Below, one piece after another: positions 22,250 to 22,366 of a stretch of 64,000 bases of DNA; positions within the stretch are counted from its first letter, which is position 1; every line of letters begins with the position of its first letter. Location: the IMG/VR virus record IMGVR_UViG_3300042934_000631, positions 4,412 through 68,411 of that record; one strand, written 5' to 3'. The translations under genes were made by a program, and so were the position numbers. This DNA comes from a virus. The notes under the pieces are model-generated. The model made no database searches. It was not told the origin of the DNA and saw only the letters and a program-made list of their open reading frames with translations.

Positions 22250-22366
22250 ATGAAAACAATCGCAAAATTTATGTCCGTAGCTTCTTTTTCCGTAGCATTC
22301 GCATTCTTCGCAGTTATGAAAGGCGGAATTGGCGAAATCGAAGCGCCAGCAGATTTCCGCAAATAA
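22250..22366 (+). CDS. AgrD-like propeptide, copy 3 (MKTIAKFMSVASFSVAFAFFAVMKGGIGEIEAPADFRK)
   Basis: AAGGGG RBS; first 71 nt identical to copy 1; not in the ORF track. Confidence 0.85.
   Translation: MKTIAKFMSVASFSVAFAFFAVMKGGIGEIEAPADFRK

Follow-up and report, generated by a model that had tools for sequence, protein, structure and literature searches.

A third copy of a cysteine-less AgrD-like propeptide gene in the replication operon of a probable Paenibacillus phage-plasmid

What would a phage gain from a third copy of a short peptide gene among its replication genes? The question is raised by positions 22250-22366 of a 64,000-nt stretch of viral DNA (hereafter, the window), which comprises bases 4412-68411 of the 68,411-bp IMG/VR virus record IMGVR_UViG_3300042934_000631 and probably comes from a soil Paenibacillus phage-plasmid. 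The open reading frame (ORF) at these positions encodes, on the plus strand, the peptide MKTIAKFMSVASFSVAFAFFAVMKGGIGEIEAPADFRK, and a protein search of the whole record found exactly three such paralogues: copy 1 after the lysin gene, copy 2 inside a four-gene cassette that resembles agr, and copy 3, the subject of this report (Table 1). We conclude with moderate confidence that copy 3 is a functional extra precursor gene of the phage's own agr-derived, kinase-less peptide signal, sited in the replication operon; on the basis of sequence comparisons, this location suggests that signal output is tied to lytic replication.

Copy 3 encodes a protein that is 95% identical to that of copy 1 and 66% identical to that of the cassette copy, and a repeat finder recovered the same genes as one three-copy family (329-462; 18500-18633, 61%; 22233-22366, 86%). 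A 32-nt probe from the 5' end of copy 3 matched at 346 and 22250 only, with any match in 0 of 100 shuffles. Sequence comparison confirmed the observation of the initial annotation that the first 71 nt of copies 1 and 3 are identical, and an exact search located their common A-rich leader, CAAAAACTAAACC, at 315 and 22216 only, i.e., ahead of these two copies; the AAGGGGA ribosome-binding site lies 9-10 nt 5' of the ATG in both, such that copy 3 has a conserved ribosome-binding site of its own. The synonymous codon strings that had been quoted for the KGGIGEI core are correct, as well. The last 46 of the 117 nt contain all 13 differences between copies 1 and 3 (Fisher P = 1.6e-6 for this clustering), in 12 codons, of which 10 are changed synonymously and two carry amino-acid replacements (D31E, V32A). 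Because 12 of the 13 differences are at third positions of the plus frame, this frame is the one that is read. By the same third-position pattern, the antisense ORF at 22222-22362 is not the frame in use.

A 69,145-bp contig of Paenibacillus planticolens LMG 31457 (G009:C10, labelled 'Circ') is syntenic with nearly the whole window, with aligned segments that are 65-94% identical (most long blocks 73-86%), and holds three copies at matching places, namely after the lysin gene, in the cassette, and 52 nt after the gene for a protein resembling single-stranded-DNA-binding proteins (SSB). The orthologue of copy 3 (G009:C10, 20913-21032) occupies the same slot and keeps the same peptide. The other four peptide matches in the 7.8-Mb P. 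planticolens genome have E-values of 0.2-1.0 only; thus, the peptide is private to the element. Being circular, this relative fits a phage-plasmid lifestyle, and it provides a culturable host of a close relative.

Synonymous and nonsynonymous changes were counted by the Nei-Gojobori method, separately for codons 1-22 and 23-38. In codons 23-38, copies 1 and 3 of the window differ by 11 synonymous changes on 10.3 sites, i.e., synonymous sites are saturated, compared to two nonsynonymous changes on 37.7 sites. Between the window and the P. planticolens orthologues, the proportion of synonymous differences (pS) in these codons is 0.45 for copy 1 and 0.39 for copy 3, whereas across paralogues it is 0.86-0.87; the proportion of nonsynonymous differences (pN) is 0.05-0.14 throughout, and the 3' halves group by position. 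Orthologues being less diverged at synonymous sites than paralogues, and pN being low, the duplication is older than the divergence of the two elements, and strong purifying selection has acted on the C-terminal half, KGGIGEIxxPxDFRK, ever since the duplication. Purifying selection on the core had been proposed in the initial annotation, and the counts and the P. planticolens orthologue, which keeps the peptide, both bear it out. In codons 1-22, copies 1 and 3 of the window show 0 differences in 66 nt, and pS over all copy 1/copy 3 pairs is 0-0.20. The codon for Ala11 is GCT or GCA, common to both copies within each genome and different between the genomes, which is a signature of concerted evolution; the 5' half has been homogenized with copy 1, in agreement with the gene conversion that had been proposed for the leader.

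The 71-nt identity was also considered as a possible assembly artefact and this was ruled out, since the isolate genome has the same pattern and the depth is approximately doubled in run X1 (soil-metagenome DNA), the probable source: there, the 71 nt form one unitig of depth 48 with flanks at 17-22, which fits two identical copies. Of three further soil-metagenome DNA runs, X2 and X3 had no cover over copy 3, which is uninformative, whereas X4 holds a 257-nt contig over 22246-22366 with three other letters; an X4 contig, possibly the same one, has a different leader ahead of 22250. As a separate observation, the G/C content at third positions of codons 23-38 is 0.81 in copy 1 (412-459; mostly G/C-ending codons) and 0.44 in copy 3 (22316-22363; mostly A/T-ending codons), compared to 0.63-0.71 in neighbouring genes, and this polarity is not shared by the P. 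planticolens copies.

The peptides belong to a narrow family. A profile search over 1.84 billion representatives yielded nine proteins at E <= 0.001, eight of which are peptides of 37-45 aa in which K, G and P do not vary; the ninth is a 516-aa protein that aligned on profile positions 4-25 only. The named matches are each a 'hypothetical protein' of Paenibacillus elgii, P. sp. A3, P. tyrfis or P. chitinolyticus. The family is present in 4 of the 37 genomes of the genus of P. planticolens and in 10 of the 136 genomes of its family, the Paenibacillaceae. In an 11-row alignment, Lys24, Gly28 and Pro33 are invariant and A32 is nearly so, and the hydrophobic part is the most variable. Conservation of the core in homologues had been set as a test beforehand, and the KGGIG core is identical across all copies of five elements: the window, P. 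planticolens (G009), G035, G008 and the P. elgii provirus G006. Neither Pfam nor NCBIfam assigned the peptides to a family, and PHROGs assigned copy 3 to none; an ESM Atlas search with copy 3 was uninformative (top score 0.80, clusters without a name), and positions 17000-23000 showed no DNA similarity match among 50,697 phage records. When metagenomes were scanned for a back-translated KGGIGEIx[AV]P pattern, nine stretches were obtained, all within longer unrelated frames; two of the four stretches with this pattern in the genome_contigs set (Acidobacteria, Altererythrobacter) are probably likewise in unrelated frames.

Among recognizable AgrD traits, the family has a hydrophobic or amphipathic N-terminus (in copy 3, the first 22 residues are hydrophobic) and a charged C-terminal tail in which one Pro is conserved. 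Canonical AgrD likewise has a tail motif with a conserved Pro, and AgrB removes this C-terminal tail. By eye, Lys stands nine residues ahead of the tail Pro in every family member that was read but one. The sole exception is the peptide of provirus G001 (L027 864-2516, minus strand), which lies in the same four-gene cassette and is of the Ser type, with Ser ten residues ahead of the tail Pro (…PASLIFVNNPKPP…), as in lactone-type AgrD; lactone-type and Lys-type precursors thus use one kinase-less architecture. The four-gene order with a Cys-less peptide is found also in the Brevibacillus phages Abouo and Emery, in IMG/VR record L006, and in 7 of 7 further Paenibacillaceae loci.

The cassette of the window (17331-19036) consists of a sensor-like membrane protein, AgrB, the peptide of copy 2 and a LytTR-only protein. 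Five AgrB residues (R68, G73, H75, C82 and P119) do not vary among the homologues that were aligned (7 of 7), the His and the Cys being residues that we take to be catalytic, as in work on S. aureus AgrB; a PDB sequence search with the AgrB protein returned nothing below E 0.1. The 220-aa membrane protein has no Pfam match, and in its Atlas model 190-198 of the 220 residues can be aligned with the membrane region of HATPase_c_5 kinases, at a TM score (by query) of 0.63-0.65. The annotation of its PHROGs family is 'membrane protein' only, although the predicted fold resembles the membrane sensor part of AgrC/NatK-type kinases. Within the 68,411-bp record, there were 0 matches to the kinase domain HATPase_c_5 (PF14501), the control search for which was positive in 10 of 14 genomes, and 0 matches to the receiver domain Response_reg (PF00072). 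Given these absences and the sensor-like model of the membrane protein, the cassette resembles agr minus the phosphorelay. It appears to be co-transcribed with a primase gene (19-nt gap).

Copy 3 begins 40 nt after the SSB-like gene and is downstream of motif B, as the initial annotation had it. The motif-B pattern is present also approximately 200 nt upstream of the orthologous SSB-like gene in P. planticolens, and a scan of 17000-24000 for sigma-70 promoters and terminators identified none on the plus strand from motif B to 24000. The SSB-like gene, copy 3 and the nuclease and family A polymerase genes are probably transcribed together. The three genomic contexts that had been described for the copies (cassette, replication, lysis) are real as gene neighbourhoods.

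From these observations, we propose a mechanism in which the following steps would be combined: (i) a single cassette would serve processing and sensing, with its AgrC-sensor-like membrane protein, AgrB, precursor and LytTR-only regulator; (ii) two orphan precursors, with their own strong, unstructured translation start, would have been copied to other places, copy 1 to the end of the lysis operon and copy 3 to the place after the SSB-like gene; (iii) the motif-B promoter would drive copy 3 together with the replication genes, and copy 3 would be translated; (iv) its precursor would enter the membrane, where the one AgrB of the phage would cut before or at the conserved Gly-Glu; (v) the released peptide would contain K-G-G-I(-G), as a linear product or as a lactam through the Lys side chain; and (vi) the membrane protein would sense the peptide and hold or free the LytTR protein through direct contact. 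The net outcome would be a signal output that climbs with lytic replication and lysis.

As for the product, K-G-G-I closed through the Lys side chain gives, by our own atom count, a 16-membered ring, and canonical thiolactone autoinducing peptides have a 16-membered ring, as well. A linear product and a Lys side-chain lactam are equally possible.

Table 1. Features of the window that bear on the third propeptide copy.
Feature	Coordinates	Strand	Remarks
Copy 1, orphan propeptide gene, 38 aa	346..462	+	After lysin gene; last gene ahead of terminator
Intrinsic terminator after copy 1	471..516	+	18-pair stem, then T run; -33.3 kcal/mol, z -8.1
Multi-pass membrane protein, 220 aa	17331..17993	+	Resembles sensor part of AgrC-type kinases (Atlas model); phrog_15604, 2.3e-46
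AgrB homologue, 176 aa	17990..18520	+	PF04647, 8.2e-16, 58.3 bits (cut-off 23)
Copy 2, cassette propeptide gene, 39 aa	18517..18636	+	Between agrB and LytTR gene
LytTR-only DNA-binding protein, 129 aa	18647..19036	+	PF04397, 9e-7; no receiver domain
Motif B, promoter-like repeat	21194..21225	+	Family D4, 4 copies; heads operon with copy 3
SSB-like gene, gp32-like, 267 aa	21406..22209	+	Directly upstream of copy 3; label from predicted structure
A-rich leader and AAGGGGA ribosome-binding site	22216..22249	+	Common to copies 1 and 3
Copy 3, Cys-less AgrD-like propeptide gene, 38 aa	22250..22366	+	Intact ORF
Small membrane protein, 74 aa	22390..22614	+	Directly after copy 3, in variable slot; sub-threshold holin-type matches only

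Several results weigh against the reading of copy 3 as a working precursor gene of an agr-derived signal. None of the three window peptides matches the AgrD model TIGR04223 (cut-off 19 bits) at E <= 1, and we therefore call them AgrD-like rather than AgrD; the Abouo peptide gives a tail-only match to this model (12.6 bits, E 0.12). The peptides are devoid of Cys, and in copies 1 and 3 Ser and Thr are likewise lacking around the core (in copy 3, from the ten residues ahead of the EIEAP tail), such that the canonical ring chemistry is not applicable. Adjacency to agrB holds for copy 2 only, copy 3 beginning 3.7 kb downstream of the end of agrB. The predicted complex of the membrane protein with the LytTR protein is a weak pass, with a score of 0.43 (runs 0.43, 0.36 and 0.47) versus 0.00 for the best of three controls; agreement between the runs is 85% of contacts or more, and the partner pLDDT is 77 or higher. 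These predictions used purpose-built 8-row alignments. Of 80 solved complexes, 58 reach the mark applied, only 7 of them with a score of 0.60 or less; of 110 mismatched pairs, 2 reach it, both within this low range. The weakly predicted contact fits, rather than establishes, signalling by direct sequestration as described for LytTR regulatory systems in the accessible part of PMC6193735. Furthermore, pS between genomes in the 5' half of the orphan copies is 0.07-0.20, compared to 0.41 for the cassette copy, and here the proposal of gene conversion falls short, as conversion alone does not explain similarity between genomes. It should be noted that this difference rests on small numbers (P from 0.004 to 0.08 for one to three changes on 15 sites); it may reflect a candidate function at the nucleotide level. 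The start regions fold more weakly than shuffles (z +2.08 for copy 1, z +1.16 for copy 3), and such a weakly structured start would suit strong translation, which is a possible reason for the 5' similarity. The same folding results led us to reject the idea that the conserved 5' half forms a stable RNA structure.

The distribution of copy 3 weighs against this reading, as well. None of the 20 IMG/VR relatives carries it behind the SSB-like gene, nor do G006, G008 and G035, such that it is missing from 23 of the 24 relatives with the SSB-like gene; with an occurrence of 1 in 24, it is dispensable, and it is a lineage-specific accessory gene. The slot itself is variable, usually holding small membrane proteins in relatives. 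Orphan copies can also decay: in G033 (L063, reverse strand, approximately 1500-1590), a copy-1-type gene that follows a lysin gene is without its start and initial codons but keeps ...FFVIMKGGIGEVDVPQDFAK, and it looks like a decaying orphan copy. The rare occurrence, this remnant and the 5' half identical to that of copy 1 all favour the view that copy 3 is a dispensable duplicate, kept by hitch-hiking and by repeated gene conversion from copy 1 and adding no output to that of copies 1 and 2. We nevertheless hold this to be unlikely, because the unconverted 3' half differs by just two amino acids although its synonymous sites are saturated, the gene is intact in two elements as diverged as the window and the P. 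planticolens contig, and its own ribosome-binding site is conserved.

Other orphan copies place copy 3 in a broader pattern. Orthologues of copy 1 follow the lysin gene in P. planticolens and G035, and the P. elgii provirus G006 has an orphan directly after the large terminase gene (L031 1501-1614; 37 aa, KGGIGEI core, poorly hydrophobic N-terminus), which is a fourth kind of context. At the other seven loci from the family-level search, the peptide is found inside the cassette only. Orphans being recurrent in the relatives and these seven loci cassette-only, the dispersal of precursor genes seems to be characteristic of this phage lineage, in which such copies come and go.

A second alternative, which we regard as quite unlikely, is that copy 3 acts in the envelope as a small membrane protein (holin- or antiholin-like, a superinfection-exclusion protein, or a partner of the 74-aa protein), with no secreted signal. 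The hydrophobic N-terminal 22 residues, the small membrane proteins that relatives carry in the same slot, the closing of the lysis operon by copy 1, and the sub-threshold holin-type matches of the adjoining 74-aa protein would all be in line with it. However, the best-kept part of the peptide is the non-hydrophobic C-terminal half, with an E-x-x-x-P-x-D/E-F/L tail common to the cassette copy, whereas the hydrophobic part varies most across the family, and the G006 orphan keeps the core despite its poorly hydrophobic N-terminus.

It is improbable, furthermore, that the orphan copies yield another product than the cassette copy, one that would antagonize the signal, occupy AgrB as a decoy substrate or open a second channel of signalling. 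The orphans do form a lineage of their own, with the tail [DE]xP[AV]DFRK in the window, P. planticolens and G035, versus xxPK[DN]Fx(K)K in cassette copies, and the residues before Lys differ within the window, from which the initial annotation had derived the possibility of two signal variants, VMKGGI and TLKGGI, or of an agonist/antagonist pair. This derivation is weakened by the orthologues, in which the residue ahead of Lys is M, L, A, F, G or E with no consistent difference between orphan and cassette copies; for example, copies 1 and 2 of P. planticolens both have L. The uniform KGGIG core likewise argues for one product, and the distinguishing tail is expected to be removed by AgrB, as in AgrD.

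The reading that the 71 identical nt and the leader are a cis-acting DNA or RNA element (a regulator or processing site), with the ORF secondary, is highly improbable: the unusual synonymous-site conservation of the orphan 5' half, also between genomes, and a direct repeat within it would agree with such an element, but no stable structure was predicted, Rfam had no match in 17000-24000 at E <= 1, and the conservation of the 3' half as protein with synonymous turnover is explained only by a translated ORF. The direct repeat, TCCGTAGC-N7-TCCGTAGC at 22274-22296, codes for a repeated Ser-Val-Ala and is not present in the cassette copy.

Our favoured reading, a functional extra precursor gene, can be extended to the lineage as a whole, although this extension appears possible rather than probable, and we put it forward tentatively: the phage-plasmid lineage would have rebuilt agr into a kinase-free private device with an AgrB-cut Lys-type peptide (lactam or linear), a sensor-only membrane protein and release of LytTR, and would have dispersed precursors to the replication and lysis operons, such that the signal would report the number of neighbour cells in lytic replication. 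If true, this would amount to the logic of arbitrium built from unrelated components, and the ring chemistry would be one so far undescribed for AgrB products.

The likeness to staphylococcal-type agr (agrBDCA) comprises AgrB with invariant His and Cys, a short precursor that begins with a hydrophobic segment and has a conserved Pro in its charged tail, LytTR output and an AgrC-sensor-like membrane protein. Unlike that system, the phage has no kinase ATPase or receiver domain in its genome, three precursor genes, two of which are distant from agrB, and an invariant Lys with no Cys or Ser ring nucleophile, the AgrD model being unmatched. To our knowledge, phage-encoded agr genes are known as annotations only, except in one C. 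difficile phage, which has a canonical kinase. In the arbitrium system (AimP/AimR) of SPbeta-like phages, a phage-private secreted peptide is made from a short precursor during infection. Our locus shares with arbitrium candidate phage-to-phage communication by a short-precursor peptide; arbitrium, however, uses Sec and an extracellular protease, an intracellular TPR receptor and one aimP, in contrast to the AgrB, membrane sensor and LytTR output found here. Arbitrium is mentioned in the accessible part of the review PMC11945551.

Among the closest published systems is that of C. difficile phage phiCDHM1 (Hargreaves et al. 2014, PMC3901668), whose agr3 locus likewise places agrB and agrD homologues on a phage; in the accessible part of that paper, phiCDHM1 is proposed to be able to influence host or neighbouring bacterial populations. 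As described there, phiCDHM1 has one agrD, a full AgrC kinase and no regulator, whereas the window has no kinase, a LytTR-only protein and three precursors with a Cys-less core. The known phage agr genes have a kinase and one agrD, as far as the accessible parts of PMC3901668 and PMC11945551 describe them. According to their GenBank annotation, the Brevibacillus phages Abouo and Emery share the order of membrane protein, AgrB, a Cys-less peptide of approximately 40 aa in which Lys precedes the tail Pro by nine residues, and a LytTR-like protein of approximately 120 aa; they differ in having one precursor gene per cassette, which lies beside an integrase or regulatory region (with no search for orphan copies made there), and their AgrB is 33-38% identical. 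The accessible part of PMC4909266 gives only 'Accessory gene regulator B family', in a legend. The LytTR regulatory systems HdrRM and BrsRM of Streptococcus mutans (Zou et al. 2018, PMC6193735) also combine a receiver-less LytTR regulator and a transmembrane protein in one operon, the contact being weakly predicted in our case; in the accessible part of that paper, they are described without AgrB, precursor or known ligand, whereas the window has an AgrC-sensor-like protein and a dedicated peptide. In the full-text literature, exclusive of supplementary files and most subscription journals, we found no description of a Cys-less Lys-type AgrD, a kinase-less agr cassette or a phage with multiple agrD genes; the AgrD list in Data S4 of PMC12180512 may contain such peptides.

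The locus bears on the question of communication among phages of soil Firmicutes outside the SPbeta group. It offers a testable case, in which a single AgrB is combined with three precursor genes whose operons are probably active at different times, and the same three copies are available on the 69-kb circular contig of the culturable P. planticolens LMG 31457. The invariant Lys in the place where AgrD has Cys asks whether AgrB makes lactams or just releases linear peptides, and with the cassette in 10 of 136 sampled Paenibacillaceae genomes, the answer would reach beyond this phage.

Among the neighbouring genes, the lysin gene upstream of copy 1 (3-308) has a Glucosaminidase match. The 267-aa product of the SSB-like gene has no Pfam match, and PHROGs places it in phrog_6883, of unknown function there. 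Its model (pLDDT 77.4, pTM 0.72) was compared to the PDB, and the top four matches are gp32-type SSB cores (VIA Z 6.5, 6.4, 5.6 and 5.2 over 164-175 residues; best rmsd 4.5 over 175; Foldseek E 4e-3), the first match after these having Z 4.5 over 51 residues. In all 22 homologues, an acidic stretch is followed by a terminal Phe, which in 16 of the 22 is the last residue of LPF; the acidic C-terminal tip of bacterial SSB resembles this ending. We give the SSB-like label moderate confidence, as it comes from a predicted fold, and phrog_6883 could be annotated as a phage SSB family on the grounds of its gp32-like predicted fold and acidic LPF end. Finally, some relatives have, beside a PD-(D/E)XK gene, an ORF of approximately 220 aa with an N-terminus that by eye is GIY-YIG-like (L048 2317-2994 in P. 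planticolens; L007 5098-5751), which is not in the window and is probably a homing endonuclease gene.

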